A stretch of 64,000 bases of DNA from Candidatus Dadabacteria bacterium (GCA_963805855.1 CAWDVW010000006.1:137693-201692); one strand, 5' to 3'; shown: positions 23,807 through 49,506, counted from the first letter of the stretch. Program-made: numbers and translations. The notes: generated by a model from the sequence alone, not told the origin.

Positions 23807-24256
23807 ATGCGTAAACTTATATCAGCCTTGTTTATTTTTTTAGTTTTATCATCCAACGGTGGGTCCGTCGAACCTTCAAATAAGAATCCAATGATCCAAC
23901 ATCCGGAGTGGTACATTAAGATTTTAGATTGGTCTTTTTATGTCGCTTGGGGTGGAGTAGCAATCATACAAAATGTAGCAATCGAGAACACTAGTAGTGT
24001 TGGATACCAAGACATAAAAGTGAGGGTAAATTATTATTCTACAACGGGCTCGAATTATGGTATCCAAGTTGGGCAGGAGATTGGGTTTTTACCCGTAACA
24101 CTGCCTCCAAAAAGCAAAAAACATTTATCTAAAAGATGGCGCAATATTAGGACTCGGCTCCACAAATTTAAGAGCCGGAGCTATCGAGGTTTTAAGTGCG
24201 GTTCCTTTGATTCAGTAAAATCAGATGTTCAGAGTAGATGTTTGATACTCGTGTAG
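23807..24256 (+). CDS. Small secreted protein, paralog family (member 1)
   Basis: Signal peptide; shares HPEWYIK--DWSF--AWGGVA-I-NV-IENT---Y-DI---NYYST block with 34131-34586. Confidence 0.55.
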   Translation: MRKLISALFIFLVLSSNGGSVEPSNKNPMIQHPEWYIKILDWSFYVAWGGVAIIQNVAIENTSSVGYQDIKVRVNYYSTTGSNYGIQVGQEIGFLPVTLPPKSKKHLSKRWRNIRTRLHKFKSRSYRGFKCGSFDSVKSDVQSRCLILV

Positions 24257-26799: not shown

Positions 26800-27310
26800 T
26801 CGCCCGCAGCTTGCGACAGGCTTTCCGCTGTCATGGCAGTGGCACGCACCGCACAGTCATTGCTGCAGATGTTGGATATTTCGTGGACAGTATCTTAGAT
26901 TTTAAATGGGCATTCAAAAAATTGCCAAAATCAATTCCGGAAGCGTTAAAAAAAGTGACAATCATTACTGTCATCTCGAAGGAGCATAGTGACTGAGAGA
27001 ACTAATTAATTATAGCAATAGATATCTCGCATTCGCTCGATACGCAAGCGTTTTTTGTTAGCCCTTGTCCTGAGCACAGTCGAAGGGTTGTTTCTTTGTA
27101 TCAAGACAAAGAAAATAAAAGATTAAACGATGGATCCCCGATTAAAACATTCGAGGATGACGGATGAGTAAATTCCCAAGAAATTTGTCAGTTTTAGGAT
27201 TTTGTCCACGAAATATCTGACACTTACAATTGCGAGCACTTCGACCCGCCTGTGCTGAGTAAAATTGAAGTACTCAGTGCAGGCTCCGGCGAAGCAATCT
27301 GCCACATAAA
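26800..27310 (-). repeat. Noncoding repeat family 1, copy C (inverted orientation)
   Basis: Reverse complement matches copy A over about 450 bp, including both arms and the TATAAT box. Confidence 0.85.
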
Positions 27311-30466: not shown

Positions 30467-30877
30467 ATGTGCCCGTCAATCTTCTCATATTTTCTCGTCG
30501 TTATAATACTTATTTCTTCTTGCACTGAAGGTAACAACTCCACAAAAGTAAAGAAGACCCAACGGAAAATTTCATCCGGTCTCCACAGTGTTATAGAAGA
30601 GTTAGAATTAAAGCCAGAAAAAAAAGAGCAAGTGTTAACTTTTATTGACAAATCGGCTCGGATTAATGAACAGGGAGGAATACAAATTTACATCCAGTTG
30701 TACGAGATTGATGAGTCAAAACTAGAGGATCTCAAGAAGCACGGTTTAACCATTGACATATATGATAATAAGCAGAAATTGGTTCAGGGTTGGGCACTAC
30801 CCAATGATGTAAAGGCCATCAGTGAACTTCCATTTGTGAAGACAATCGATTTACCCGCATATGGAATAGCAAATTGA
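30467..30877 (+). CDS. Putative lipoprotein
   Basis: Signal peptide plus ISSC lipobox; preferred over the overlapping antisense ORF 30331-30651. Confidence 0.4.
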   Translation: MCPSIFSYFLVVIILISSCTEGNNSTKVKKTQRKISSGLHSVIEELELKPEKKEQVLTFIDKSARINEQGGIQIYIQLYEIDESKLEDLKKHGLTIDIYDNKQKLVQGWALPNDVKAISELPFVKTIDLPAYGIAN

Positions 30878-30921
30878 GGGGAGTATGGGGAAATGGTTAA
30901 ATCCATAATTCTAGTTGGAAA

Positions 30922-31940
30922 AGGGGTCAAATCTTTTGTTTATAAGTTTTGTTTATAATATCTTCGACCTTTTTTCTAAACCTTTTGTCCTTCTCCATTT
31001 TTACCCGTACCCAGTTACAAGCCCATCCTACCACCCCATAACTACTTACTCCAAACATCCCTGCTACCTCATTTAGCGTTATATCACATAACTGCTTTAC
31101 TAAATGCATCCCTACCTTCCTCGCTTCACTATCACTTCCCTTTCTCCACCGAAGCACCTCATCAACTCTTGTCCCATATGCCGTAGCCACATTACTAGCT
31201 ACCTCATTCACCGACGGCCTCAACCATACTCTCTCATGCCGAGGATGCTCTCTTCCTATCTTGCCTATCTTCTCCCTTACCCTTTCCCTAAAATCCTCTC
31301 CTCCTAATATTGGACTCTGGCGACTACGAGTATAAAACTTTTTTAACTTATCCTCATTCCCCGATAAAACAAACTCCTGAAATTCTCTAACACTACGGAA
31401 TTCCTCCAATAACTCAGTTACATTAAGCCACTGCGGTGCCTTTTTTGGTTTCAAATAGTTCTTATGGCTGCTCCACTTGTATTCGTCAGGTTCTTTAGCC
31501 AGTCCAGCCTCAATAGGATTCAAATGTATGTATCGCACTACAGCCGTCAGATATCTATCACCGTCTATCACTATTGCCTTGAATCGACCCCGAAATATGG
31601 GACCGTCTCGTCCATGCATTCTGTTAAATCTCTGTGTGTATAGACCGTCAACATGGCGCATGACACGGGAAAGATTTGCCTCCGGGGTCCTTAGGCAGAC
31701 GTGATAATGGCTACTCATCAGACAGTATGCAAAGACCTCAATACCCCAACGTTCATGGGTCTCAGCGATAGTCTTCAGAAATTCCTCGAAGTCTTTTGTC
31801 TGTATAAATATCTTCTGACGTGCGATCCCACGATTCATCACATGGTATATTGCACCCGGAAACTGAATCCGAAGCGGACGAGACATTATAGATAATTATA
31901 GGGGAATCAATTAGACTTCTAAACAAAAGATTTGACCCCT
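30922..31940 (-). mobile_element. RAYT-like Y1 (HUH) transposase unit flanked by perfect 20-bp inverted repeats
   Basis: AGGGGTCAAATCTTTTGTTT at 30922-30941 and its exact reverse complement at 31921-31940 bracket the gene. Confidence 0.75.
30927..31886 (-). CDS. REP-associated tyrosine transposase-like protein (Y1_Tnp) with C-terminal DnaA_C-like HTH domain
   Basis: HUH motif SSHYHVCL; RAYT-type YIHLNPIEAGLA...YKWSSH tyrosine region; C-terminal segment resembles the DnaA domain IV HTH. Confidence 0.8.
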   Translation of the reverse strand: MSRPLRIQFPGAIYHVMNRGIARQKIFIQTKDFEEFLKTIAETHERWGIEVFAYCLMSSHYHVCLRTPEANLSRVMRHVDGLYTQRFNRMHGRDGPIFRGRFKAIVIDGDRYLTAVVRYIHLNPIEAGLAKEPDEYKWSSHKNYLKPKKAPQWLNVTELLEEFRSVREFQEFVLSGNEDKLKKFYTRSRQSPILGGEDFRERVREKIGKIGREHPRHERVWLRPSVNEVASNVATAYGTRVDEVLRWRKGSDSEARKVGMHLVKQLCDITLNEVAGMFGVSSYGVVGWACNWVRVKMEKDKRFRKKVEDIINKTYKQKI

Positions 31941-32382
31941 AATTTATGTCACGCTGGATGGTCGCGACGAGGGCGCCCTCGTCATCCACCAGTTCGACGA
32001 GCTTCGAGGAGCGAATGACCTCACCACCCTGCTCGTGGAGGTACTCGGTCAGAATCGACTCGGTCACCTCCTCTGAGACGCCGATGTTGAACCCGTAACG
32101 ACTGCCGCAAATTGAGAGGTCGATCTCTCCGAGTACTCTGCCCCCGGAGTGAAGTCGGGCCATGCGCTGCTTGACGCCCACAGTCAATAGGGGCTCGGGG
32201 ATGCCCAGCGACTCAAAGACCTCAAGCGAGCGTGGGTGCACCACTGTCGCCCGGTCCCAGTGCAGCGGCGCTGGATGCGCATCGATGATACGACACTCAA
32301 TCCCCCGGCGATGCAGTTCCGCAGCCAGGAGCAGCCCCGTCGGGCCTGCGCCCACCACGAGAACAGTCACATCAGGAACCAT
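31939..32382 (-). pseudogene. N-terminal fragment of an FAD-dependent monooxygenase (high-GC, foreign)
   Basis: GAGPTGL dinucleotide-binding motif; only 147 aa; GC far above surrounding DNA. Confidence 0.65.
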
Positions 32383-32710
32383 GTCGAATCCACTTGAATA
32401 TCATATTCGCATTTCAGGTCCAAAGAAGATGCTTCTCCCGTGCCTTTGTAGGTGTCTCGGTTAATTCAGTGATGAAGTCTCCCATTCTTTGTGGCAAACT
32501 CATTGGTCATTCGAGGTTCATCGAGGAAAACAGCCATCTGCATCTCGCATTTCTTAGCCGAACTCGTAATTATACTGAATAATTCAATATAATCAGCTGT
32601 CAGGGTGATAGTTAAGGATTCTATTTAATTTAAACCTGTTCGATTCATACACCCCATATGCTCTGACTATATATAAATAATAATCTCAAGTCAAAGAATG
32701 CTTCCTCCGT

Positions 32711-32743
32711 TTAAACCAAGCTTAACAAAAGGGGAGCGGTACA
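32711..32743 (+). repeat. Island boundary motif copy 1 (consensus TTCCAACTTAAACCGAGCTTGACAAAAGGGGAGCGGTACA)
   Basis: One of five same-orientation copies. Confidence 0.8.
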
Positions 32744-32898
32744 TGACATTGACCTACATGCACTCATACATTATCATGAGCTACTATGGAACAACGTAAA
32801 CTGAATGATGCAGAAATTGCGCATATGCAAGTGAGGCTTCCAATTGAGCTGTATAAAATAATTAGACAGGTCGCCTTTATTGAGACAGGGAGGATCGA

Positions 32899-33738
32899 AT
32901 GCCTATCTATATGGATCGTCATGACATCAAAGGCACGACTGCAACTGAAGTTGCAGAGGCCCATCAGAAAGATCTTGAAATCCAAGACAAGTACGGTTGC
33001 AAGGCCCTGACATATTGGTTTGATGAAGCAAATGGTACGACTTTTTGTTTAATAGAGGCTCCGAGAAAACAAGCTGTAGAGCAGATGCACCATGAAGCTC
33101 ATGGACATGTTCCCAGCGAAATCATCGAAGTCAACCCTGGGGCCGTGAAGGCGTTCCTTGGAAGAATCGAGGACCCGCCAATGCCAACCAAGTCGCCTGC
33201 GCCTACCAGTAACGTACCAATAATAGACTCTGCCTTTCGCACTATCATGTTCACGGATATGGAGGGTTCCACGACTATAACAACACGCCTCGGGGACTCT
33301 AAAGCCATGGAACTCCTTCGTACTCATGATGCCATTATTCGCGATGTTATAAAGACTCATGATGGCAACGAAGTTAAACACACAGGTGACGGTTTCATGG
33401 TTTCCTTTTGCTCTGTTTCTCGCGCTGTAGAGTGTGCTATGTCTATTCAAAGGGCTGTTGCTTCTTATAATAATAAGGAGCCCATCGCTACTATCCACCT
33501 TCGCATTGGCATCACTGCTGGTGAGCCCGTCACGGGAGGCCAGGATCTATTTGGCTCCACCGTCCAACTCGCTGCTCGCATCTGTGACCATGCTAAACCT
33601 GAACAGATTTTGGTCACACGTGTAATACAAGATCTGTGCATCGGCAAGAAATTGCCATTTTCCGACCAGGGTGAGATACCGCTACGTGGTTTCGATGAGC
33701 CTGTGCGGCTGTATGAGGTTAGATGGCAGGCGGCATAG
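32899..33738 (+). CDS. DUF4242 - class III adenylate/guanylate cyclase fusion protein
   Basis: N-terminal MPIYMDRHD...DKYG..AL.YWFDE (DUF4242-like); C-terminal cyclase catalytic domain FTDMEGST...HTGDGFMVSF...RIGITAGEPV. Confidence 0.8.
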   Translation: MPIYMDRHDIKGTTATEVAEAHQKDLEIQDKYGCKALTYWFDEANGTTFCLIEAPRKQAVEQMHHEAHGHVPSEIIEVNPGAVKAFLGRIEDPPMPTKSPAPTSNVPIIDSAFRTIMFTDMEGSTTITTRLGDSKAMELLRTHDAIIRDVIKTHDGNEVKHTGDGFMVSFCSVSRAVECAMSIQRAVASYNNKEPIATIHLRIGITAGEPVTGGQDLFGSTVQLAARICDHAKPEQILVTRVIQDLCIGKKLPFSDQGEIPLRGFDEPVRLYEVRWQAA

Positions 33739-33821
33739 TATGGAATTATATAAATTTCACAAATGTAATCCACAAATAAACTTAAATGTGCTCTGCTTAA
33801 TTGTAGCCGAGACAAATTCAA

Positions 33822-33935
33822 GAACACTTACCCCGAAAGTTTTTTAGCAAATACTGTGTGTCAAAGAAACTATTACGCCCCCTGGCAGGGGGGGGTAGGG
33901 TCAGCCGGTAGGGTATGGGGGTAGCCTGCCCCCCT
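33822..33935 (+). repeat. Repeat R3 copy 1 (G-tract-rich, about 110 bp)
   Basis: Matches 41440-41545; contains G8 homopolymer and a G4-like run. Confidence 0.8.
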
Positions 33936-34028
33936 ATAATAGGTCCATAGTTTAAGTTAGATTTTTGATAGAGAACCCTATATGTCGGGGATATTCTGAA
34001 TAGCTAGGAAGCACTACATTCTCTATGG

Positions 34029-34067
34029 TTCCAACTTAATCCGAACTTAATAAAGGGAAGCCGTACA
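34029..34067 (+). repeat. Island boundary motif copy 2 (diverged)
   Basis: TTCCAACTTAATCCGAACTTAATAAAGGGAAGCCGTACA. Confidence 0.65.
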
Positions 34068-34130
34068 CTGATTTCTCACTATCTTTGGCTCTAGGAGTCA
34101 ATTTTGGCTTTTTCGTCCTTGTGAAATTAC

Positions 34131-34586
34131 CTACCGAACCCTTACTACAGGAACAGCCCCTAGAACTTGGACATATTTTGTTTGGTAACTCCCTGCTCCC
34201 ATCCCAATAGGCATTCCACCTTTTAGATAGGTGCCCTTGCTGTGAGGAGGAATTGTGATGGGAAGTACCGCAGTGGTACTGCTTACCTGTTGGCCAGCGT
34301 TGTTATATGAGGTGGAGTAGTAGTTGAGTTTTATTTCAATGTCCTTATACGCTATGTCCGCTGTATTCTCAATCGTGACATTACTAATCATAGCTACTCC
34401 ACCCCAGGCAATAAAAAAAGACCAGTCAGTAACTTTAATGTACCACTCAGGATGTTGTTTCATTGAAATCGTAGGTTCCATATCTTGAGCCTTGGCAAAT
34501 GGAGAAAGTAGGACCAGTAGGATAAACAGTTTTGTCGTTATATGGTTCATGTTTGTATTCTGAGAGCTAGAAGTATTAGTTACCAC
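34131..34586 (-). CDS. Small secreted protein, paralog family (member 2)
   Basis: Signal peptide; conserved block shared with 23807-24256; bracketed by motif copies 2 and 3. Confidence 0.55.
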   Translation of the reverse strand: MVTNTSSSQNTNMNHITTKLFILLVLLSPFAKAQDMEPTISMKQHPEWYIKVTDWSFFIAWGGVAMISNVTIENTADIAYKDIEIKLNYYSTSYNNAGQQVSSTTAVLPITIPPHSKGTYLKGGMPIGMGAGSYQTKYVQVLGAVPVVRVR

Positions 34587-34617
34587 TATTATACACTAGG
34601 CTAATCTCCGTCTTTAT

Positions 34618-34656
34618 TCCAGTTTAAACCGAGCTTGACAAAAGGGGAGCGGTACA
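34618..34656 (+). repeat. Island boundary motif copy 3
   Basis: TTCCAGTTTAAACCGAGCTTGACAAAAGGGGAGCGGTACA. Confidence 0.8.
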
Positions 34657-34986
34657 AACTACCCTTTGTACCAATCCATATAGAGACTTTGCAACAACCA
34701 CAATTCCACCTGTCAGAGGGTGTGAGATTCAGTAGCAATCTGTCTATTCCGTAAAGACAATAAAGAATGTCTGCCGGCATTCCACCCGGCTGTTGTGCGA
34801 CGTTCTCTACAGGTAGGATGAGGCAGACTGTTTTCTCATATTAACTCTTCCTCTGTTTTTTTTAATTCAACGGTAAGTGAGCCTATTATTTGGGTTAGCT
34901 CTTGATTCTTTTTACGAAGGCGAATGGCGGATAAGGGAAGTGGTGCGATGTGCGATGATCTGGAGGGAAAAAGAAGGAGGCTGGAT

Positions 34987-35225
34987 CATCAGATAAGCAG
35001 GCTTTTTAGGGCTGAGGGCAAAGTGCCTGCCAAATCACGACCCCTTCGTGCTTGCTCACAGGATAGCGGTTCTCGACCATCTGGCTAAAGGGAGATTCTA
35101 TTGGGGTGTCGGGTCCGGTACCTTTATAGGTGACTTTGAGGCATTCGGGATTGACCCAAAAACAGGAGAGCAAAGGGAATTAACCAGTGACTCACTGGAT
35201 TTTATCCTTAATTTGTGGAAAAACC
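34987..35225 (+). repeat. Left arm of about 240-bp inverted duplication (includes the 5' end of the LLM pseudogene)
   Basis: Reverse complement of 40308-40555 at near identity. Confidence 0.9.
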
Positions 35226-35892
35226 CGAAGCCCGGTTTTTATGGAAACAACAGATGGAAATTTCGGGTACCAGAACCGCAAAATGACGTAGGTCTTGGCG
35301 TAGATATAAGTCCGTATCAGAGACCGCATCCCCCAATAGCCGTGGCGGGGATAACCGAAAGGTCTGAGACGCTGAGAATCGCCGGAGAACAGGGGATGGA
35401 TACCCATGAGCATTAATTTCATACCAAAAAATGTGTTGATGACGCATTGGTCATCGGTCGAAGAAGGAGCCCGAATGTCAGGAAAAAACCCGGATCGCTC
35501 GAAATGGCGGATTGCAAGGGATGTCTATGTCGCCGAGACTACCGAGGACGCCCGTCGGGAGGTAAAGCAGGGAACACTGTCTAGGGATTTTACAGACTAC
35601 TTTTTCAAACTAGTCCCAAGGATTAGGGGCAATTTAAAACACCTTTAAAGTCGATAAATCTATGCCCGATTCGGATGTGACTGCTGACTACATGATCGAT
35701 AATCTTTGGTTAGTCGGAAACCCTGATGATGTTGTCGACCAAATTAAAGAAGTTTATCACCATGTTGGCGGCTTTGGGGTGCTGCTTGTGATGGGACATG
35801 AATGGAAACCCAAAGACAACTGGGTCAGATGCATGAAGCTATTGGTTGAAGAGGTACTGCCGCGCTTGAAAAATTTAGGGAATAACGCTTAA
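35048..35892 (+). pseudogene. Luciferase-like monooxygenase (LLM) family flavin oxidoreductase, disrupted by two frame changes
   Basis: Homology continues through three frames (35048-35416, 35406-35648, 35662-35892); elevated GC. Confidence 0.7.
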
Positions 35893-36256
35893 GGTAGGCT
35901 TCGTCGCCTCCATACTAATCCTCCCAGATCAATGGTGAGCTTCCCTTACGGTGGCAGACGGTACGACGCTCGGATTCCACCTGCATCGATTAATCCGCAT
36001 GCCTAATCATGAACCCCTCCATCAGCGTCTGCAGCATGACGGGTGTCTCCTCCATCGGGTAGTGGCCCGATTCGATCTAGCAAACTCTATGTTGTCATGC
36101 CATTTCGTAAAAGTTGCGCGCTGCGCCTCGATCCGCTCGTTGGGGAGGTCGTATTTTCCGCAGATTACCAGAAATGGCAGAGTGACACAGCCCGCTTCAG
36201 GTGAAAAATCGTGTAGTGTAAACATATCTAGGTAGCCTCGCGCCGCTGCAGCGGTT

Positions 36257-36300
36257 CGGGTCTGGCGCGCGCGGCGCATCTTAAACTTCTTCCACTGTGT
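36257..36300 (+). repeat. 44-bp inverted repeat partner of 40201-40244
   Basis: TCGGGTCTGGCGCGCGCGGCGCATCTTAAACTTCTTCCACTGTGT and its exact reverse complement. Confidence 0.85.
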
Positions 36301-36348
36301 CGAAAGTCGGTTACCCATGGCAAAGTCAGGAGTTCATGGAATTTCTCA

Positions 36349-36771
36349 TCATCGGTGATGGAGTCGATGGCTTTCTGCCGCAACTCTTCGGGCATTTGAA
36401 GCCGGCTGCCGAGACCGCAGCGATAGCAACCACACTCTTGAGCGCTCTGGCACGTCGATTGCCAACCGCTCGACGACCATGCCGGTCATTGAGAAGCCAA
36501 CCAAATGAACACGATTCCAACTAAGGTGATCGATCAGCTCGAGCGTATCAGCGGCAGCCTCGGTTTCGTTGTACTCACCCGTGAGGTGGATGGAACGGCC
36601 GTACCCGCGTACGTCGGTCAGCACATAGGTGAATCGATCTACATCGAGATACTGCATAACCGGCTCCCAACTCGTGCAGTCACCCATCCAATCGTTGTAG
36701 ACAACAACCTTCTCGGTCCATGCCCGAGCAATCTGTGTCCCAAGAGTGCCAATGGTCACGACTCCCGTCAC
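36349..36771 (-). pseudogene. Alpha/beta-hydrolase fragment (high-GC, foreign)
   Basis: HLVGFSMTG nucleophile elbow in a 140-aa truncated ORF; GC-rich. Confidence 0.5.
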
Positions 36772-37331
36772 AATGCTGCAACGCTGAACTATAACGCCAC
36801 CCGCGGATGCCCAGCATCAAATCGCGGGCCCAACATCAATCTCAAATATTTATTCTACTCGTTCCAAATTTAAAACGCACATTACACTGCGCGTCAAAGT
36901 GATTGACAATTTTTGTTACCAAAGATACCAATGATAACTAAGCGATTAATTCATTCTCCCAATGAACTAGGAGAATGGAACCTGATTACCAAAATGTGTC
37001 GTTACAGGTCTAGGAAATTCTTCTTTTGCGGATCAAAAATTAAGATTCGGTCTATTTTGTACAGGGTTAAATTAAGTTTTTATATGATCTATACACTCAG
37101 AACCAAGATGGCCTTCTCACAGTTCGTCTTCTCGTGGTGCTGCGCGTCCCCCCCTAGACCAAAAACGCCCAATATCCCAAGACTGATTTCCCTCGCCATT
37201 GTTCGACCGATTTGTCTGGTGACACTGCTGTTCATGATGGTTTCAAGAGTTCCTTTATCAGCTGATGACCTTGATCTTCCAACCTTCATTTTCCATATCG
37301 CCACGAAGTTGAAAAAATACTTAATAATCAT

Positions 37332-37643
37332 TTGGTAAAAAAGACAAGTTTTTCCAATGAATTGTATCTCTGCGAAAAGTGTTACAGACTTTATGCGAGA
37401 TTCTACGTAAGGATAGATTACGATGAAGATAAGACTTATACGACAGTGTACGTATGTAGCAAGTGTGAAGAGTTACTTAAAAGTATAAGGGAAGAAGAGA
37501 TACCCTTAATACCCTGTGCTAAATGTGGGGAAGAAAGCTCTAGAATACCGCCTGAGTTTGCTATGGGATTAAACTCCGATTTATGGAACGTATGGTACCA
37601 GCCTGTTGTTTGTCCTGCGTCAACTTTTATTAAGGTTACTTAG
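37332..37643 (+). CDS. Zinc-ribbon protein (three CxxC pairs)
   Basis: CEKC...CSKC...CAKC. Confidence 0.45.
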   Translation: MVKKTSFSNELYLCEKCYRLYARFYVRIDYDEDKTYTTVYVCSKCEELLKSIREEEIPLIPCAKCGEESSRIPPEFAMGLNSDLWNVWYQPVVCPASTFIKVT

Positions 37644-37693
37644 AAATGAACAGGGTAAGTCTAATTGATTTTTGAGAGTGGAGAGGTGTTAAT

Positions 37694-38071
37694 GTGAGCA
37701 AAACTGAAACGCCAATGATTAGAAGGTACTGGGAGATGGTTGGTGGTACATTGATTGAAGAATTTCCTGTTGTTAAGGGAACAAGGTACCAAGGAGCGAG
37801 GAGAATAGATGCGATAATAATTAAAAATGGTGAGAGGAGAATAGCAAAATCAAATGAAGTTTCTTTAAAAGGTAAGGATATTATTTGTGTTCAAGCTAAA
37901 AGTCATAGACTTGGTATGTATTTAATGGGACAGACGTTTTTCTCTGAGCAGCTATTAAGGAGATTTGAGCCGAGTAGTGTCTCATGCGTTGCTTTATGTG
38001 CCAAAGACGATGCAGTCCTAAGACCATTAATAGAACAGTATCCACAGATGAAAGTTGTTGTAATTGATTAG
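37694..38071 (+). CDS. Hypothetical protein, possible restriction-endonuclease-like (PD-(D/E)xK / TnsA-like QxK variant) fold
   Basis: RIDAIIIK (Asp strand)...KDIICVQAKSH (D-hhhh-QxK) pattern; speculative. Confidence 0.35.
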   Translation: MSKTETPMIRRYWEMVGGTLIEEFPVVKGTRYQGARRIDAIIIKNGERRIAKSNEVSLKGKDIICVQAKSHRLGMYLMGQTFFSEQLLRRFEPSSVSCVALCAKDDAVLRPLIEQYPQMKVVVID

Positions 38072-38208
38072 AGTTGAAATCTCAGAATATCATAACGAGG
38101 ATGAGTTATTAGCTATGTTAGCACCATGGCTACGATATACTGCTCCCCATTAAGGAGTGAGTGTGATTAAGTGAGAAAATATCTGTAATAGACAATGGGG
38201 GAGCAACC

Positions 38209-38484
38209 ATGAAACGAAGAAGATGGGATTCTAAAGCCAAGACAAAAATAGTACTTGAAGGTCTGTCCGGTAGACCAGTATCAGACATTTGCAACGACTT
38301 CGGAATACATCAGAACCAATACTACACCTGGCGGGACAAGTTTTTATCAGAAGCCCACAGAGCCTTTGAATCCAAAAAAGACGGTGCACAAGTAAATCGC
38401 CTTCGTAAAAAGAATCAAGAGCTAACCCAAATAATAGGCTCACTTACCGTTGAATTAAAAAAAACAGAGGAAGAGTTAATATGA
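38209..38484 (+). CDS. IS3-family transposase OrfA (HTH)
   Basis: Typical IS3 OrfA with leucine-zipper-like C-terminus. Confidence 0.8.
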   Translation: MKRRRWDSKAKTKIVLEGLSGRPVSDICNDFGIHQNQYYTWRDKFLSEAHRAFESKKDGAQVNRLRKKNQELTQIIGSLTVELKKTEEELI

Positions 38485-38642
38485 GAAAACAGTCTGCCTC
38501 TGTATCCTTTAGTAACGAATACTTACTTACACGAATAAAGGATATAAAAGCGGAACATCCTTTCTGAGGTTATAGAAGAGTATGGGCATATCTAAGATAT
38601 ATAGATGGACTAGTAGTTAACAAGAAGCGTGTATACAGGCTT

Positions 38643-39251
38643 ATGAGAGAGAATAACCTTACCGTTAAGCCTAACACAAGACTAATAGCAAAGAGGATAT
38701 CAGGAAGACCAAAGCCAAGACCTGATAGACCCAGACAGTGGTGGGGAGTAGACATGACAAAGGTCATGACTGACAGTGGCCGGGTATATGTAGTAATAGT
38801 ACTGGACTGGTATACGAAGAAGATAGTAGGTTACTACAGTGGAACAAGAGCCACAACCATAGAATGGCTGGAAGCTTTAGAGAAAGGACTAAACCGAGAG
38901 TTCCCCGGAGGGGTGAGAGGACATGAATTAAAGCTCATGAGCGATAATGGGAGTCAGCCTACTTCACTTAGTTTTATGAAAGCATGTTCCAATCTGGAAG
39001 TAGAGCAAGCATTTACCAGTTACAATAACCCGAAGGGTAATGCGGATACGGAGAGAATGATAAGAACGATGAAAGAGGAGCTATTTTGGCTAAGAGAGTG
39101 GAAGAGTGAAAGAGAGCTTAGTCATGAGCTGGATAAATGGATTAAGTATTACAACACAAGCTACCTTCATTCAGCACTTGGATACCGAACACCGATTCAG
39201 TTAGAAGAGGAATATTACAGGAATATCACTTCACATGAAAATGCTGCTTGA
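38643..39251 (+). pseudogene. IS3-family transposase OrfB (integrase core), N-terminal part interrupted by a stop
   Basis: DDE/rve core; upstream in-frame region carries a TGA stop. Confidence 0.75.
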
Positions 39252-39363
39252 GTAATTTACTTCATAGTAATTACAACTTTTCCTTAGAGCCTTGGCTATA
39301 GTATAATAAGGGTGTAATAGATTTCATTTTAAGCCCTGTATTTAGATAGTCAGGGGTAATTAT

Positions 39364-39849
39364 ATGGCTCAACCAACTGACATAGCTCAGAATCATATTG
39401 TAAAAGACCTGATGCTTTATCCTGTTTCCCCCTCAATACTTTATTATGTTGAACTGCCGGGAACCAAGTGCAAGATTATCCAAAACAATGGTAACAAACT
39501 CTACTGCGCAAAATATCCTATGCTTAAAGGACTGTTCAGAAAGGACATGGATGAAACTAAGAAATACGGAAAAATAATCTGCTATAAAGTGGCAGAGAAA
39601 CTGGACAACTTCGGCTTTTTCACCTCCGATGAGCGCCCTGAATATGGAATATCGTACGGTATATCCGAAAAAGAATTCGCGTATATGTTTGAGCTAATCG
39701 GGGCTAAAGAAGGCGAGCACTTAGTTGCAATGTTCGCATATCCGGAAAGAGAGGCACTTGAGTCAAAAATCTTTTTTGAAAAACTGCTTAGAAAGACTTA
39801 CTTCTCCTATATTCTAGATAAAAAAATTTTCAATATGTTTTTTGGTTAA
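39364..39849 (+). CDS. Hypothetical protein
   Basis: Clean ORF, no motif; followed by motif copy 4. Confidence 0.4.
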   Translation: MAQPTDIAQNHIVKDLMLYPVSPSILYYVELPGTKCKIIQNNGNKLYCAKYPMLKGLFRKDMDETKKYGKIICYKVAEKLDNFGFFTSDERPEYGISYGISEKEFAYMFELIGAKEGEHLVAMFAYPEREALESKIFFEKLLRKTYFSYILDKKIFNMFFG

Positions 39850-39945
39850 GTAAACTCTGTTTTCATCCCCGTAGGGCTCCCTCGGCTCTTGCTCATAAAG
39901 CAGCTAATAGTTACAAGGTTAGGTTGGGAATGAACGAATACTATA

Positions 39946-39985
39946 ATCCAACTTAGACCGAGCTTGACAAAAGGGGTGCGGTACA
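39946..39985 (+). repeat. Island boundary motif copy 4
   Basis: ATCCAACTTAGACCGAGCTTGACAAAAGGGGTGCGGTACA. Confidence 0.8.
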
Positions 39986-40200
39986 ACGACCATTTAGACT
40001 TAATACATTATATGACGATTGGGAAAACGCACCATCTTACTCGGGATGACCAATATGGATAACAAAATCGTGCTTGAATGGAGAGGTGCCTTCGACTGGT
40101 TTGGCTCATCCGAGAACGTCACGGCCAGCCCTGACACTATGAACCCCGCTGCTGGGAACCTCTCTCTGTATACACGGAGTTCCTTAAGGGAATGAGCTCG

Positions 40201-40244
40201 ACACAGTGGAAGAAGTTTAAGATGCGCCGCGCGCGCCAGACCCG
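40201..40244 (-). repeat. 44-bp inverted repeat partner of 36257-36300
   Basis: Exact reverse complement. Confidence 0.85.
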
Positions 40245-40307
40245 AGAACCTATGCTGAGAGTAACCTCGCTTCTCTATCCTGTCTTCTTATTGTTATTGG
40301 TTCAGGC

Positions 40308-40555
40308 GGTTTTTCCACAAATTAAGGATAAAATCCAGTGAGTCACTGGTTAATTCCCTTTGCTCTCCTGTTTTTGGGTCAATCCCGAATGCCTCAAAGT
40401 CACCTATAAAGGTACCGGACCGACACCCCAATAGAATCTCCCTTTAGCCAGATGGTCGAGAACCGCTATCCTGTGGGCAAGCCCGAAGGGGTCGTGATTT
40501 GGCAGGCACTTTGCCCTCAGCCCTAAAAAGCCTGCTTATCTGATGAGTGGTTTAA
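40308..40555 (-). repeat. Right arm of about 240-bp inverted duplication
   Basis: Reverse complement of 34987-35225. Confidence 0.9.
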
Positions 40556-40598
40556 TTCCAAATGGATGGCGGGTGTCTTTCCTCAGCAGGCATGGTCC

Positions 40599-40637
40599 GT
40601 CGCGGGTGATGATAATCGCCCGGAAACAAGCCAGGCC
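40599..40637 (+). repeat. 39-bp inverted repeat partner of 41369-41407
   Basis: GTCGCGGGTGATGATAATCGCCCGGAAACAAGCCAGGCC and its reverse complement. Confidence 0.85.
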
Positions 40638-40956
40638 AAGACCCAGGGGCACAAGCTCGCACAAGCCATCATCCCCCCCGTAGAGAAAGCCTTGACCCTG
40701 AAGTTCTGGGCTGCCCTCTTCTCCCTCAGGATTACATCAGCCACAAGCATCTCTCCCGATAGTATGTATACGTCCAGCGCACCCCTCATCGGGCACACGC
40801 CCAGATGGAAAACACAGGCTATGTTAATACTTCACCTCGACGAAGGAGTAACAATAACACCAAACTTTGCGCTATAAGACCTATAATCGGGAATTATAGG
40901 CATGCTCGCAGTCTAATTAATAGTTAGGCACAGAAAAGCGCAGGAACTGTCATCCA

Positions 40957-41283
40957 TTGGTAACAAGCTCTGCATACTTTACCACGAACGACGGGGTGAG
41001 GCTGCATTACCTCGAAGCAGGTCACGGGAGACCACTCGTGCTGCTGCCGGGGTGGACACAGCCGGCCGAGACGTATATCTCGCGGTTCAAATCAGACCCT
41101 TACTCCATTCTTATTGCTGAAATGCTCTTGAGGAAAACTACAGCCTTACAGGTTGAAAGAATATTTCGCTTTACTTCGGGAAAGGGTGACGCTAAAAAAT
41201 TAGCCAGGGAAGGAATAAAACAGGGGTTTACCCATTTTGTTTCTGTCGGGGGGGACGGTACTGCACATGAAGTGGTGAATTGA
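40957..41283 (+). pseudogene. Chimeric fragment: alpha/beta-hydrolase N-terminus joined to a DAG-kinase/YegS-like GGDGT segment
   Basis: High-GC first 45 codons, then AT-rich FVSVGGDGTAHEVVN and stop. Confidence 0.4.
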
Positions 41284-41439
41284 AGGCGACAAAGCCAAAC
41301 TTGATGACCTGGTTTCAACGCTCGAGCCAAGCATTGGGTAGGAATCGGAAAACGAAATACTGGATATTGGCCTGGCTTGTTTCCGGGCGATTATCATCAC
41401 CCGCGACCGTAGAGGCGGCTTCTAAGTGAATTGATGCAT

Positions 41440-41545
41440 AACCTACCCCGAAATTTTTAGCAAATACTGAGTGTCAAAGAAGCTATTACGCACCCTGCCA
41501 GGGGGGGGGTAGGGTCAGCCCGTAGGGTATGGGTACGTAGGCCAG
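41440..41545 (+). repeat. Repeat R3 copy 2
   Basis: Matches 33822-33935. Confidence 0.8.
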
Positions 41546-41779
41546 AGCTTTCATTTTCTTCTCTATAACCCCACAGACAAAAGAAAGCAATAAGGTATAA
41601 CAACCATGATTTCACCTGTCAGAGGGTGTGAGGTGTAGAAACCCACTGTTAGCGGGCATACGCTTTTATGACCAAGAGCCTAGGGAGCCGTGTGACTCCC
41701 TCCGCCTTGGGTTATACGTTTCTCGCTGGTGCAGGTGGGTGCATGCTGGTTTGGGCTACCACTCAGACGACCTGGATTA

Positions 41780-42298
41780 TCACGGCGTGAGCGTAGGTGA
41801 AGGCTCGCAACTGTATGATGCTTGTGCAGGGTCGATTTGGACGATGTTCTTCTGAGCCAGTTCGGTTGTGTACTGCGCTAGTCGGCATAGACACGTCTCA
41901 AATTGGGCTTCAGAAGTGCCGTTTGATTCGGGTTGGACGTCGCAGAACGGTGGTGCATTCCCGAGCGTGAAGGCTACGGAGCACCCTAGGCTGCTGCCAT
42001 CGCGTATCGCGGTATTGGCGAACCTGTTCCCGTCGCCCACTGGCTGGGATAATGCACAACCATCAGATGGTAGCGAGTCGCATTGGGATGATGTGCAGTT
42101 GTCGAAGTCGATATTCTCGCAACTGCAAAATACGCCTCCCCAGCAATCTGTGGTCATGGGTACCTTGAAGTAGTCGCATGGGCACTCTGCTACTGCAGCG
42201 AGCTCGGCACATGGGTCGCCGCCACCGCCATCACCATCACATCCAATGCCTACAGCTAGCAGAAATAGTAACGCTAAGAATATCTTATGAGGCTTCAT
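41780..42298 (-). CDS. Cys-rich lipoprotein (high-GC), function unknown
   Basis: Signal peptide plus LAVGIGC lipobox; about 20 Cys. Confidence 0.5.
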   Translation of the reverse strand: MKPHKIFLALLFLLAVGIGCDGDGGGGDPCAELAAVAECPCDYFKVPMTTDCWGGVFCSCENIDFDNCTSSQCDSLPSDGCALSQPVGDGNRFANTAIRDGSSLGCSVAFTLGNAPPFCDVQPESNGTSEAQFETCLCRLAQYTTELAQKNIVQIDPAQASYSCEPSPTLTP

Positions 42299-42395
42299 AA
42301 TATCCCCCCCCCTTACGATTTTATTTGAGTAATACGCCTGACAGCACTTGGCAACTTTATCATATGTTTGATGCGAAATGCAAGGATATTATGAT

Positions 42396-42430
42396 TCCAA
42401 CTTAAACCGCCGTTGACAAAAGGGGAGCAG
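42396..42430 (+). repeat. Island boundary motif copy 5, abutting the truncated integrase
   Basis: TTCCAACTTAAACCGCCGTTGACAAAAGGGGAGCAG. Confidence 0.75.
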
Positions 42431-42435
42431 GATAG

Positions 42436-42726
42436 GCAATAAAAGAAGCCGGTGTTAAATGCACCTTCCACAGTTTAAGACATACATTCGCAAGCAACCT
42501 GGTTACACGCTTGAAAGAGGATATGGTAACGGTAATGGAGTTAACCGGACATAAAGATATTAGGATGCTAAAACGATATAGCCATACAAAAAAAGAGCTA
42601 AAAAAAGAGGCTATGTCAACATTGGGGAATCATCTAAAATCCCTCGATTTGGATACATCCATAGACACCTCCTCGGACACCTCTACAGGTGACAAGATTT
42701 TCACCAAATTATCTGTTATATCTTAA
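42436..42726 (+). pseudogene. C-terminal fragment of a tyrosine recombinase (phage-type integrase), 5'-truncated
   Basis: In-frame HSLRHTFASNL (box II) ... LTGHKDIRMLKRYSH (catalytic Tyr region); no N-terminal domains; directly adjacent to tRNA genes. Confidence 0.75.
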
Positions 42727-42749
42727 CTTCCTGTTATCAATTGGAAATA

Positions 42750-42830
42750 TGGTGGCGTCCCCGAGGGGATTTGAACCCCTGTTACCGCCTTGAAAGGGCG
42801 ATGTCCTAGGCCAGGCTAGACGACGGGGAC
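42750..42830 (-). tRNA. tRNA-Glu (anticodon UUC)
   Basis: Cloverleaf with anticodon loop CUUUCAA, encoded CCA, acceptor GTCCCCG/CGGGGAC. Confidence 0.85.
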
Positions 42831-42835
42831 GGGAG

Positions 42836-42910
42836 TGAGCCGTGCAGGATTCGAACCTGCGACCCACTGCTTAAAAGGCAGTTGCTCTACCTAGCTGAGC
42901 TAACGGCTCA
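42836..42910 (-). tRNA. tRNA-Lys (anticodon UUU)
   Basis: Anticodon loop CUUUUAA, T-loop GGTTCGAATCC, 5 nt from tRNA-Glu. Confidence 0.85.
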
Positions 42911-43026
42911 CAGGTAAATGTCAAAATATATCACTTTTGAACCCTTTGTCAAAAAGTTGCGTTTTCTCTTTTCTCGTTATAATTGTACGGTGTTAATGTT
43001 CATTCAATTGAATTTGAAGAAATAAT

Positions 43027-44185
43027 ATGGTCCTGGATTTAGATCGGAATCAGTTTAAGAACTTTTCATTGATTATCACATCCAGTTTTCTGTTTTTCTG
43101 TAATTTTTCTTCCTTTTTTCTTTTGCCTCTATTTATAAAAAGCCTGGGAGGGAATGAAAGAAACATAGGCTTTGTGATGGGTTCATTTGGAATCACGTCC
43201 ATAGGGTCTATCCCTATCGTTTCCTACTTATTAGACAAATATGGAAGGCGTAAATTCCTTGTGCTCGGGAGTTTAGTTATGAGTTTGTCTTCATTTGGCT
43301 TCATTTTCATAAAAGATCTAAGCCCTCTTCTATATGTATTCAGATTATTTCAGGGGATTGGTTTTGCTTTCTTTTTCACTTCTGCGGCTACCGCCGCGGT
43401 AGATGTAATACCTGAATCGAGAAGGGGCCAGGGTCTCGGAATATTTGGGGCATTTCTTATTTTAACCTATGCCATAGGTCCGAGTATTGGTGAATTGGTC
43501 ATTGATAAATTTGGATTTAGTCTGTTTTTTATAATCACATCATCATTCAGCCTAGCTGCTACCTTCTCTGTTTTTTTTATAAGGGATGTTGCATTTAAAC
43601 GATCGACAGACACAAATGCACTCCGTTTTTTTTACCTCGCATTCTCCAAGAGATACTTTGTATTACTACTTACCAATATAATCGCAGCAAGCGGCTTTGG
43701 CTCTGTACTATACTTCATATCGGTATACCTAAAATCCAAGGGGTTGAATGTCTCTTATTTCTTCGTTACCTATACCATTACCGTTGCAGCTTTGAGGATT
43801 TTAGGCGGTAGAATCTCTGACGTCTTTGGAAGGAAGGGTGTAGCATCTCCGAGCCTGTTTCTATTTTCACTGGCGATAGCATCGGTTGCCTTAATAAATT
43901 CGGTATATATGATTGTTCTGGTCTCAGTATTATTCAGTGTCGGATATGGAATGTTATATCCAACGCTCAGCGCCCTTGTCATTGATAAGTCATGGGCCGG
44001 ACGAAAGGGGAAAGGCAATGGGCGCTTATAATGCGAGCTTCAGCATGGGTGTTAATTTTCCAACGTTTGCCTTTGGTATAATTGCTAAAAATTGGGGTTT
44101 TGTTGATATGTACCTTATATCGGCATTCATTGTTTTCGTAGGGTTTTTAATATTCACCTTTTTTGAAGCCAAGCGGTACTCTTGA
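43027..44185 (+). CDS. MFS transporter with a frameshift near 43990-44030 (two ORFs 43027-44031 and 43913-44185)
   Basis: About 12 TM helices across both frames; could be a real pseudogene or a sequencing/assembly indel. Confidence 0.7.
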
Positions 44186-44987: not shown

Positions 44988-45372
44988 CAAATACCGGCTT
45001 ATTTAATATTTAACTTTTGGGCACTACTGTAAATCTTAGATAATTCGTGGATAAGATTCTTACAATTTGATGAGACTTTCTGAGAATCAAAAGGGCTTGA
45101 ACGGCATTCCAAGTCCTGACGAAAACCAGGATCTATTCAGTATCAAGACAAAGAAGTTGGAAAGAAAAGTAAGATGATTGACGAAAATACTTTTAAAGAT
45201 TCTTCCTTGAAATATCTGGCTTTTAGAACTACGACATATCTTAGGTCTAATATGGAGCTATCCCTACAAAATTTTTTGATTAGATACCGCAGTAATAAAG
45301 GGTATAAAAATTTTTTAATCAAGTTATAATGTACATTCTGATTTTCAAATCTTTCGAAATTGTGAGGTAATA

Positions 45373-49319: not shown

Positions 49320-49506
49320 TTTTCTTTTTTTTCTTTGTCTTGATACTGAATAGATCCTGATTTTCGTCAGGACATCAGAACTTTTTCCTGTCATCTCGAA
49401 CGCATGTGAGAGATCTAGTAGTTAAGTCGGTAAAAGCAAAAGACAAAGGAAAGATTTCTCATGGAACGTGTACTGAGCTTAGCCGAAGTATTCGAAATGA
49501 CATGAC
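49320..49506 (+). repeat. MITE-like repeat family 2, copy b (with family-1-like TTTCTTTGTCTTGATAC head)
   Basis: Shares CCTGTCATCTCGAA...TGTGAGAGATCT-GTAGTTAA...AAAGGAAAGATTTCTC...GTATTCGAAATGACA with copy a. Confidence 0.8.

Follow-up and report, generated by a model that had tools for sequence, protein, structure and literature searches.

The segment from 30919 to 42741 of the 64-kb window (the whole stretch of DNA that was analyzed) is best read, with a probability of about 0.7, as a variable and decayed region adjoining tRNA-Glu in a Dadabacteria-like chromosome, differing between strains, scrambled by insertion sequences (IS) and organized mainly by a cargo-carrying IS3-family element. 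It is a real but ordinary collector of junk DNA in an uncultured Dadabacteria-like genome. Its limits were set by synteny with relatives. On the left, homology is lost at 30886 (L208) and at 30918 (L209 and L210); on the right, the homology of the closest relative returns at 42742, which is 11 nt short of the tRNA-Glu 3′ end. In the MAG JBAUII, whose flanks are 86%–94% identical at the nucleotide level, the same place is occupied instead by peptidase S8, OLD-like, DUF4145, and REase-like genes and by another IS. A flank gene is 93% identical to its counterpart in a Thermodesulfobacteriota MAG and 72%–76% to those of Dadabacteria MAGs. The original prediction was of a decayed, tRNA-linked genomic island made of gene fragments of roughly 60% GC and of nested inverted duplications, possibly a fold-back assembly chimera. 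The variable, decayed region at tRNA-Glu is borne out by the break and return of homology in the relatives, and a gene order shared by all of them was not seen, since their content differs here. The fold-back chimera and the general 60% GC content are not supported, and the organizing element was overlooked, namely, the IS ends, a MITE, and one full cargo-carrying IS3-family copy, together with the RAYT-like left border.

At that left border, a native peptidase S8 gene is truncated after about nine codons by a RAYT-like element. The remnant (30893–30918, plus strand) keeps the first 8–9 codons (MVKSIILVG); in L209 and L210, the equivalent codons, MIKSIILIG, run on into a 348-aa Peptidase_S8 gene. 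The element itself, a RAYT-like Y1 (HUH) transposase element (30922–31940, minus strand; Pfam Y1_Tnp, 1.1e-11), is bounded by inverted repeats of 35 nt (30922–30956 and 31906–31940) whose arms match exactly over their first 21 nt. Its ORF (30927–31886) codes for 319 aa, in which the HUH motif (SHYHV), the catalytic tyrosine of YxxxNP (RYIHLNP), and a C-terminal DnaA-like HTH can be read. The protein scores 45.3 on Pfam Y1_Tnp (cut-off 23) and 75.9 bits on NCBIfam REP_Tyr_transpos (cut-off 80). We did not observe dispersed REP copies of the flanking repeat in the 64-kb window beyond the two flanking copies. The same element also truncates a foreign FAD-dependent monooxygenase gene, of which the N-terminal 147 aa are present (31939–32382, minus strand; Pfam FAD_binding_3 positions 1–137 of 349), ending at the right repeat of the element. 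The best non-self relatives of that fragment are 80%–87% identical.

The conserved right border is formed by tRNA-Glu(UUC) (42753–42830) and tRNA-Lys(UUU) (42835–42909), both on the minus strand and both found by ARAGORN and Rfam, as originally predicted. Next to them lie ∼95 codons for the C-terminus of a tyrosine integrase (42436–42726, plus strand), with HSLRHTFAS ... RYSH and a weak match to Pfam Phage_integrase. This fragment is 80.6% identical in nucleotides to the intact 365-aa integrase of L004, which is sited at the same tRNA. Fused to it is the IRR, or right end, of the IS described below, without its last ∼5 nt (42395–42429, plus strand). This joint, which marks a deletion and not an insertion, occurs in L082 and L083 as well; one JGI and one Logan contig match the window here and on the tRNA side at 99.5%–99.9% identity. 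A second tRNA 3′ end was not found (with up to 3 mismatches in 25 nt; blastn-short). The direct repeat of the tRNA-Glu 3′ end that the original note proposed to look for near 30.9 kb thus does not survive, and the distal att repeat is lost.

The IS3-family element is present in one complete copy (38136–39985, plus strand), recognized by Pfam HTH_Tnp_1 and rve, by the complementarity of its terminal repeats, by a target duplication, and by homology to full copies elsewhere. It consists, all on the plus strand, of the left terminal repeat (IRL; 38136–38175), orfA (38209–38484; HTH_Tnp_1), orfB (38481–39251; rve and rve_3), a conserved leader, X (39259–39363), a passenger ORF (39364–39849), and the right terminal repeat (IRR; 39946–39985). 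The stop of orfA overlaps the ATG of orfB (ATGA), with an A8 run 20 nt upstream, and the overlap is frameshift-prone by sequence. In orfB there is one nonsense codon (TGG to TGA at 38565–38567); the intact OrfB of L093 reaches 177.7 bits on NCBIfam NF033516 (IS3), above the cut-off of 160. Homology to the full copies L093, L098, L124, and L196 extends from 38134 to ∼39258. A 4-bp target duplication, ACGA (38132–38135 and 39986–39989), brackets the entire 1,850-bp unit, and this copy appears from its sequence to have transposed as a single unit with its passenger gene.

The right end of this element also accounts for a direct repeat of ∼45 nt, overlooked originally, that occurs in five copies on the same strand in the island (ending at 32743, 34067, 34656, 39985, and ∼42429) and nowhere else in the 64-kb window. 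Because it has a sharp 3′ edge (..GTACA) and matches the IRL at 38136 in reverse complement, the repeat is the IRR of an element of the IS3 family whose ends are IS2-like and which has a passenger slot between orfB and IRR. The IRL reads TATACTGCTCCCC.. and the reverse complement of the IRR TGTACCGCACCCC..; both edges are sharp over 40–147 copies, with CA-3′ ends. Besides the complete IS copy, the window holds one MITE of the same family and three solo IRRs. The MITE (33922–34067, plus strand; 146 nt) has an IRL of type b, a core of ∼60 nt, and a degenerate IRR. Two solo IRRs, at 32704–32743 (..GGTACA) and 34617–34656, both on the plus strand, have intact tips; the third is the one fused to the integrase remnant.

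From the orfB stop to the IRR, the ORFs differ among the window, L093, L098, L124, L182, and L196, and the full copies all hold there 0.7–1.9 kb of differing passenger DNA. Transposase-less cassettes (IRL-orfB3′-X-cargo-IRR) and MITEs of ∼145 nt exist in metagenome loci (about twenty MITEs of 116–151 nt with these ends), and the IS family with both kinds of derivative is found in more than 120 metagenome contigs. A 4-bp target duplication occurs in 5 of 51 IRL..IRR pairs overall (vs. ∼0.2 expected). Most pairs, and every MITE checked, have no such duplication, so that many copies are rearranged or the ends were wrongly paired. At least seven junctions in contigs join an IRR to an IRL across 1 nt, giving TTGACA-N17-TATACT/TGACCT; tandem copies or circles both fit. 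In IS2, abutted ends give a junction promoter, Pjunc, of that TTGACA-N17-TATACT kind (PMC3299598).

The other genes and fragments agree with the gene content originally proposed, Pfam and NCBIfam recovering the Y1 transposase, FAD_binding_3, Bac_luciferase, Abhydrolase, DAGK_cat, the IS3, and the integrase fragment. An intact gene of 279 aa (32899–33738, plus strand) combines SCO4226-like and class III nucleotidyl cyclase domains (Pfam). A secreted-protein gene (34131–34586, minus strand) has a native paralogue at 23807–24118, with 51% identity between the two. A luciferase-like monooxygenase (LLM) pseudogene (34986–35892, plus strand) lacks ∼85 N-terminal residues and lies in three frames (Pfam Bac_luciferase positions 85–311 over three ORFs). 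The alpha/beta-hydrolase gene at 36022–36771 (minus strand; Pfam Abhydrolase) is frameshifted; in L204, the region is one 181-aa ORF. Two small low-GC ORFs (37332–38071, plus strand), one of 103 aa and zinc-ribbon-like and the other of 125 aa, match no Pfam or NCBIfam family above threshold. A mosaic ORF (40957–41283), preceded by a hydrolase leader (40866–40956), joins ∼43 aa of an alpha/beta-hydrolase N-terminus, ∼25 aa that are HhH-glycosylase-like (by eye only), and ∼40 aa of DAGK_cat. Toward the tRNAs, a Cys-rich lipoprotein gene of 172 aa (41780–42298, minus strand) is of the same kind as the secreted Cys-rich cargo of the IS family elsewhere. For some of the fragments, similar genes are found in high-GC organisms. 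In base composition, only the FAD-monooxygenase piece (61.7% GC) agrees with the value of ∼60% first assigned to the foreign fragments, most pieces having 42%–55% (hydrolase 54.9%, Cys-rich gene 54.1%, mosaic ORF 49.2%, LLM 47.0%). The whole island has 45.4% GC (vs. 41.2%–41.4% in the flanks), in patches from 37% to 62%.

Four inverted pairs are superimposed on this gene content. The three predicted ones are present, with coordinates corrected by a few bases: 34986–35225 with 40308–40546 (240 nt, 98.75% identity, two substitutions and one indel), 36256–36303 with 40198–40245 (48 nt, 100%), and 40599–40646 with 41360–41407 (48 nt, 96%). The left arm of the first is the start of the LLM pseudogene, and that of the second is a piece of the hydrolase gene and the source of its inverted copy. 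The segment 40198–40546 (minus strand) is thus an inverted and internally deleted copy of 34986–36303, made of the two reverse complements (of 36256–36303 and of 34986–35225) with 62 unrelated nt between them. The third pair (span 40599–41407) encloses the hydrolase leader and the mosaic ORF. A fourth pair, overlooked before, is an exact copy of 104 nt at 34820–34923 (minus strand), a piece of the resident IS covering the 3′ end of orfA and the start of orfB (38397–38500). The copies at 34820–34923 and 40198–40546 are also found in L204. The junctions of the inverted copies are blunt, with no IS ends and 0–2 nt of microhomology. The predicted G-rich direct repeat R3 (33826–33919 and 41441–41533, plus strand, ∼90% identity) is likewise present. 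A direct repeat of 51 nt (34693–34743 and 41599–41649) had been overlooked; its second copy closes the repeat block 41441–41649. Repeat matches of such length are not attributable to chance.

A fold-back chimera, as first suggested, is not supported. L204, an independent 10.5-kb contig of another ENA assembly (the independence being judged from a divergence of 3.4%, patchily distributed, and from a separate accession of the ENA analysis), is colinear with 31068–41407 and repeats all four of the inverted pairs with order and orientation unchanged, which makes a fold-back artefact of one assembly unlikely; further, two substitutions separate the arms of the 240-nt pair. An assembly error in the wider sense, with the block from ∼30890 to 41407 misjoined into the chromosome contig or with the inverted mosaic made as an assembler or read chimera, is unlikely. 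The junction 41407|41408 is supported by the window alone: L204, with the same block, stops exactly at 41407, and the two short-read contigs L082 and L083, with flanks 99.5%–99.9% identical, differ from the window left of 41408. The window also shows homopolymer differences of the long-read type, its differences from L083 being two homopolymer lengths only, and with this long-read-consensus look some of the "frameshifts" may be consensus errors. Against such an error stand the internal mosaic repeated in L204 and the substitutions between the inverted arms; moreover, overlap-based long-read assemblers do not make 48-nt pieces. The left end of the block, with the truncated native S8 gene and then the RAYT repeat, is as a chromosomal junction would look. 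A false join at 41407 is improbable, and an artefactual mosaic very improbable. Considering where L204 ends and where L082 and L083 diverge, the junction 41407|41408, which the window reads across, is a strain-variable breakpoint.

The five same-strand IRR copies could recall an integron-like cassette array, with the repeats as attC-type sites and the integrase fragment as what is left of the integron integrase. In this island, as in many metagenome contigs, repeats of the same orientation do follow one another at distances of 0.6–5 kb and enclose one or two unrelated ORFs, and an integrase fragment does stand at one end. The repeat, however, is one arm of IS terminal inverted repeats, its tip being TG/TA..CA and the target duplication 4 bp long, and it does not form an imperfect palindrome containing R/L boxes. 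L004's intact integrase is far under the integron-integrase cut-offs (55 bits vs. 265; 44 vs. 435), and relative to the repeat the ORFs are of mixed orientation. The integron reading is contradicted on both counts, integrase and repeat, and is highly improbable. A programmed inversion (shufflon or phase-variation switch) flipping promoters or coding segments, for example of secreted or lipoprotein genes, is hardly credible either: a 48-nt pair does bracket a 713-bp segment with a gene leader, and the strain-level polymorphism adjoins the lipoprotein gene, but the four pairs have no common sequence (a shufflon uses one repeated site), the island has no intact recombinase, the bracketed sequences are gene fragments, every pair has the same orientation in L204 and in the window, and the alternative haplotype is not a simple inversion product.

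Returning to the decayed, IS-organized region, its history can be proposed as follows. It would have begun as a tRNA-targeted integrative element whose excision is presumably no longer possible, and it would now gather mobile DNA and dead genes. Repeated insertion of the IS family, recombination between copies, and adjacent deletions would have left the genes as a patchwork of fragments. Recent local copy-and-paste in unselected DNA probably produced the four near-exact inverted copies (48–240 nt, blunt), with replication template switching or other illegitimate recombination as the likeliest source, and the 240-nt pair could now drive inversion of the intervening 5 kb. Turnover is probably faster in the region than in the flanks; strains whose flanks are identical differ in structure at 41407|41408. 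Rather speculatively, the IS2-like family might serve in Dadabacteria as a platform for the capture and expression of genes for secreted, lipoprotein, and Cys-rich proteins. Same-orientation [ORF-IRR] arrays would then form by insertion beside resident IRRs, each IRR having an outward TTGACA and a subset a common leader and signal peptide. The blunt inverted mosaic and the breakpoint that is polymorphic, to the exact nucleotide, among strains identical elsewhere would be by-products of reactive IRR-IRL junctions.

Compared with known systems, the region resembles tRNA-linked genomic islands by its place at a tRNA 3′ end, the adjoining integrase remnant, the different content in relatives, the modest GC deviation, and the abundance of IS and pseudogenes. 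It differs from them in that no flanking direct repeat is left, that on the distal side a truncated gene of housekeeping type, adjoining a RAYT element, takes the place of an att site, and that no coherent cargo function is evident. The element at that border appears, like RAYTs, to encode a single-domain Y1 HUH transposase, in which the HUH motif and the catalytic tyrosine can be read, and it has paired flanking inverted repeats; unlike in RAYTs, its protein is just under the NCBIfam cut-off and has an extra DnaA-C-like HTH domain, and its REPs are not dispersed in the 64-kb window.

IS2 moves by copy-out-paste-in via a minicircle with a junction promoter. With IS3 and IS2, the present IS shares an orfA (HTH) overlapping an orfB (DDE/rve), the A8 run, imperfect terminal inverted repeats of ∼40 bp with CA-3′, and, in the window copy, a 4-bp target duplication; its IRL tip, TGACCTGCCCCCC, is similar to that of IS2, TAGACTGGCCCCC. 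In contrast to those elements, the body without cargo is only ∼1.13 kb, variable passenger DNA (0.7–1.9 kb) lies between orfB and IRR, OrfB is only ∼33% identical to annotated IS3 transposases, and most copies are without target duplication. Transporter IS (tIS), mobile insertion cassettes (MICs), and MITEs are defined in ISfinder/ISsaga (PMC3129680). Unlike in tIS and MICs, the cargo here is mostly secreted, lipoprotein, or Cys-rich, with a shared leader of ∼100 nt and even a signal peptide in a subset, and IRR-only same-orientation arrays are common; in a literature search, we did not find the cargo type, the shared leader, or such arrays described for Dadabacteria. As in tIS, MICs, and MITEs, passenger genes lie within the IS ends, and transposase-less forms with ends and cargo, miniatures of ∼145 nt, and solo IRs occur.

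The right border of the variable region lies at the tRNA-Glu gene. Immediately to the right of the tRNAs lies a methyltransferase gene with 93% identity to that of a Thermodesulfobacteriota MAG (JBAUII...) and 72–76% identity to those of several Candidatus Dadabacteria MAGs, in all of which the tRNA-Glu/tRNA-Lys pair is found upstream. DNA homology with the closest MAG begins at 42742, at the tRNA-Glu 3′ end. Left of its tRNA, that MAG carries an unrelated IS together with OLD-like, DUF4145, and restriction-endonuclease-like genes. The left border is adjoined by a conserved protein of the lineage (136 aa, 30467–30877), and homology with the three relatives compared stops at 30886 (L208) or 30918 (L209 and L210). 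Where homology between the window and L209 or L210 stops, a gene for a peptidase S8 of 348 aa begins in these two relatives. In the window, only its first 8–9 codons are present (MVKSIILVG vs. MIKSIILIG in the relatives), and the terminal repeat (35 nt) of the RAYT-like element (a Y1 HUH transposase element) follows. In another relative, L004, an intact 365-aa integrase directly adjoins the same tRNA-Glu (80.6% nucleotide identity to the window fragment). Within the window, the tRNA 3′ end occurs only once, and the direct repeat that the original prediction sought at the far border is thus absent there. On these grounds (border homologies, the intact integrase of L004, and the single tRNA 3′ end), the stretch 30919–42741 is an island linked to a tRNA and variable between strains, from which the integrase and the distal att site have been lost. 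The gene order is not common to all relatives, which differ here, and the prediction of an island holds in this respect.

Within the block at 30.9–42.9 kb, long ORFs are few and the GC content is patchy (34%–61%), with 45.4% for the whole island vs. 41.2%–41.4% in the flanks (window average ~41%). The fragments had been described as having roughly 60% GC; this applies to the FAD-dependent monooxygenase (FAD-MO) fragment (61.7%) and not to the other pieces (54%–55% for the hydrolase and the Cys-rich gene, 47% for the luciferase-like monooxygenase, or LLM). The predicted gene content is recovered (Y1 transposase, FAD-MO, LLM, hydrolase, IS3, DAGK mosaic, integrase fragment), as are tRNA-Glu and tRNA-Lys, the only matches in an Rfam scan of the window. 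From left to right, the S8 remnant is followed by the RAYT-like element (30922–31940), whose transposase has an intact HUH motif and catalytic Tyr and a DnaA-C-like tail (NCBIfam score of 75.9 vs. a cut-off of 80). Its right repeat abuts the truncated FAD-MO gene, a 147-aa N-terminal fragment. Then come a solo right terminal inverted repeat (IRR) of an IS3-family element, an intact SCO4226-cyclase gene, the G-rich direct repeat R3, a MITE, a paralogue (51% identity) of a secreted protein that is native to the genome, a second solo IRR, an inverted IS fragment, the LLM pseudogene (in three frames, ~85 N-terminal residues missing), the frameshifted alpha/beta-hydrolase pseudogene, two small unknown ORFs, a transporter IS, 1.4 kb of mosaic, and R3 again with the Cys-rich lipoprotein gene. 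Before tRNA-Glu, an IRR is fused to the last ~95 codons of a tyrosine integrase (int′). This IRR is without its last ~5 nt, and the IRR/int′ joint is therefore a deletion joint, not an insertion joint.

The mosaic ORF (40957–41283) consists of ~43 hydrolase codons, a short HhH-glycosylase-like piece (recognized by eye only), and a DAGK_cat piece. Genes of an organism with 58%–60% GC match its hydrolase piece at 71% (aa) and 73% (nt) identity, and the best non-self relatives of the FAD fragment, among the matches listed, are 80%–87% identical. These resemblances make a foreign origin of some island fragments plausible. No recent donor was found for the foreign-looking fragments. Exact-protein look-ups (MFS, RAYT, cyclase, 161-aa cargo, FAD fragment, orfA) returned no record, and a plasmid origin of 31941–38133 was set aside after no match at the blastn level. 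In the 58%–60% GC organism (L205, 10001–12043, and L206, 704–2786; ENA ERZ25039533 and ERZ25039463), an IS30-type element splits the alpha/beta-hydrolase after ~codon 43, in the same codon region where the hydrolase fragment of the window stops, and both go on with “RFKS.” In P0002, this motif, shared with the mosaic ORF, is supplied by the IS30-type insertion in the high-GC hydrolase gene. The likeness could be a common insertion hotspot or a coincidence. The homologues of the FAD-MO fragment (31939–32382), among the 120 listed, are all short (101–257 aa), even on contigs of 0.1–7 Mb, probably because frameshifts in long-read MAGs and contig ends cut them short. A 125-aa ORF at 37694–38071 has a PD-(D/E)xK-like motif (..IDAIII..ICVQAKS..) and no family match; a zinc-ribbon ORF lies before it, and both ORFs have low GC and are unchanged in L204 (ENA ERZ25039549 contig_96865).

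A repeat of ~45 nt (core TTCCAACTTAAACCGAGCTTGACAAAAGGGGAGCGGTACA), missed in the original prediction, occurs five times in the island, always on the plus strand, with copies ending at 32743, 34067 (degenerate), 34656, 39985, and ~42429 and none elsewhere in the 64-kb window. The motif is present in L004 and, in a pattern scan, in at least 120 metagenome contigs and in no viral contig. With fuzzy matching, 182 copies are found in 695 kb, often as same-orientation arrays with a spacing of 0.6–2.5 kb and unrelated ORFs between. Over 147 copies, conservation ends abruptly past ..GTACA. The left terminal inverted repeat (IRL) at 38136 reads TATACTGCTCCCCATTAAG.. and the reverse complement of the repeat TGTAC[T/C]GCTCCCCTTTTG.., so that the repeat pairs, as reverse complement, with the IRL. 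Because homology to full copies of the element (L093, L098, L124, L196) runs from 38134 to ~39258 (the orfB stop) and is followed by 0.7–1.9 kb that differ until the repeat, the element is IRL-orfA-orfB-[passenger]-IRR. In the window copy (38136–39985), the passenger ORF is 161 aa long, and the 4-bp sequence ACGA is duplicated on either side of the element; exact 4-bp duplications flank five of 51 IRL..IRR pairs vs. ~0.2 expected. As far as sequence can tell, these target-site duplications show that the cargo-bearing unit was moved by IS3-family transposition. OrfB of an intact copy passes the NCBIfam IS3 model (177.7 vs. a cut-off of 160) and has ~33% identity to annotated IS3 transposases on plasmids. 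In the window, orfB has a single TGG>TGA nonsense codon (38565–38567), and this copy is therefore probably non-autonomous.

Other roles for the ~45-nt repeat fare less well. As a promoter for downstream genes it would face flanking ORFs of mixed orientation, and a consensus promoter scan of 38000–40100 is not above shuffles; only a junction-promoter geometry remains. An attC site (integron), an att site, or a tRNA 3′ copy is contradicted by the lack of similarity to the tRNA, the IS-end properties of the repeat, and the lack of an IntI. A shufflon reading of the island was considered and rejected.

Four inverted pairs are present in the island. Three of them had been predicted and need only slight corrections of coordinates: 34986–35225 with 40308–40546 (240 nt, 98.75% identical), 36256–36303 with 40198–40245 (48 nt, exact), and 40599–40646 with 41360–41407 (48 nt, 96%). 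The R3 repeat (33826–33919 and 41441–41533) had likewise been predicted. The fourth pair had been missed: 34820–34923 is the exact reverse complement of 38397–38500, a piece of the IS3 orfA. Among the inverted copies, only 40198–40546 can be read as the reverse complement of a longer segment (34986–36303) with an internal deletion, the middle 1,031 nt being replaced by 62 unrelated nt; a single large inverted duplication behind all pairs does not fit the copy order. Outside the island, a 43-nt intergenic inverted repeat lies to the right (45114–45156 and 49331–49373, ~98% identical) and looks like a small dispersed repeat unrelated to IS ends. To the left, a ~100-nt repeat unit at 27200–27387 matches L002 (a relative) at 10568–10701 in both orientations, right of the equivalent of window position 49303, which points to a rearrangement or to a further dispersed repeat of small size.

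The original prediction left room for a fold-back assembly chimera. Such an artefact would give identical arms, whereas two substitutions (one non-synonymous) and one indel separate those of the 240-nt pair, and this disfavors it. Further, database records place an 81-aa form of the mosaic ORF on two contigs: that from which the window comes (334,620 nt) and L204 (10,548 nt), which is colinear with 31068–41407 and has all four inverted pairs. L204 is nearly identical to the window over 34818–38067 and 39318–41407, ~10% divergent in three patches (32068–32817, 33568–34817, and the IS body), and has many scattered indels; by these patches and indels it would be a separate consensus of lower quality, drawn from a sample or strain other than that of the window. 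Its inverted IS fragment is identical to the IS of the window and 6% different from its own IS, and was therefore copied from a window-type IS. A JGI contig matches the tRNA-proximal part, with the IRR/int′ joint, at 99.5% (41408–43079), and an Illumina-derived Logan contig does so at 99.9% (41408–42830). Over the 1.4 kb of the latter, the only differences are two homopolymer lengths, at 41501 (G9 vs. G8) and 42304 (C9 vs. C8), which suggests that the window is a long-read consensus from the same population. At 43994, one extra G with respect to L002 (94% identical) divides the flanking MFS transporter gene (43027–44185) between two frames. Here a consensus indel is probable rather than a true pseudogene, and some frameshifts may, for that reason, be consensus errors.

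The real structure is nevertheless not uniform at 41407/41408. L204 ends exactly at 41407, both short-read contigs leave the window sequence at 41407/41408 and agree mutually (both have 199 nt that the window lacks, followed by a hydrolase leader that is 95% identical and oppositely oriented), and the continuation across this point is seen in the window alone; at least three haplotypes thus appear to meet there. A simple inversion deriving the window from the haplotype of L083 (one of the short-read contigs), through the 48-nt arms or from 41408 to the hydrolase gene, does not agree with the missing arm in L083, the 199 extra nt, and a leader only 95% identical.

Several genes are truncated at the ends of mobile elements: S8 and FAD-MO are cut where they meet the RAYT repeats, int where it meets an IRR. 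The patchwork of fragments would result from recombination between element copies and from adjacent deletions. Judged by their divergence, the inverted copies appear recent, since they are 98.75%–100% identical, whereas IS copies from other contigs are 8%–17% divergent. Their junctions are blunt, with 0–2 nt of microhomology and no IS ends. Template switching during replication, or illegitimate recombination of another kind, is the most probable origin of these copies, in DNA that would be under no selection. Through the 240-nt arms, the 5 kb between them could now be inverted.

The region is thus a real, decayed, IS-scrambled tRNA-Glu island of an already known kind, a normal example of a tRNA-adjacent island decaying and filling with IS debris, and as such it changes little. 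Its main use is as a caution: in long-read MAGs, a region that resembles a fold-back chimera may be genuine. Of greater use is the by-product, an IS3-family transporter IS that had not been annotated before. This element, with its mobile insertion cassette (MIC) and MITE derivatives, is plentiful in metagenome contigs of the Dadabacteria type, and its cargo is mostly secreted proteins. A literature search on IS elements of Dadabacteria turned up nothing. Annotating the ~45-nt ends would account for many contig breaks and “hypothetical” cassettes in Dadabacteria-type genomes and would offer a handle on gene flow in this uncultured lineage.

Transposase-less cassettes of the family (L190, L194, L142, L171) consist of an IRL, the last 95 nt of orfB, a conserved leader of ~100 nt (“X”), cargo, and an IRR, and explain the sharp start of homology at 39160–39162 in many loci. 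Their cargo ORFs share a ~100-nt leader, a signal peptide, and a lipobox (M[RS]RLIKSR.YL.KCLGFVLLFGFISLGAIGGCNN..), with unrelated mature parts, and would make up a family of variable lipoproteins whose 5′ module is constant. In L195, L101, L157, L149, L201, and L170, same-orientation IRR arrays occur with one or two ORFs between and no recognizable IRL. In L103 and L135, AAAATTTGACCCCT directly follows the IRR and resembles the terminal repeat of the RAYT-like element (AAAGATTTGACCCCT); the IS family and that element may target each other's ends. The MITEs are ~116–151 nt long (one at 33922–34067 in the window). Transporter IS, MIC, MITE, and solo IR, as classed in ISfinder/ISsaga (PMC3129680), are the counterparts of these objects. 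About half of the same-strand ORFs immediately upstream of an IRR have a signal peptide by a crude test, and several encode small Cys-rich proteins, like the window gene at 41780–42298. In at least seven contigs, IRR-1 nt-IRL junctions occur and create TTGACA-N17-TATACT, with the same geometry and single-base spacer as the junction promoter of the IS2 minicircle (PMC3299598).
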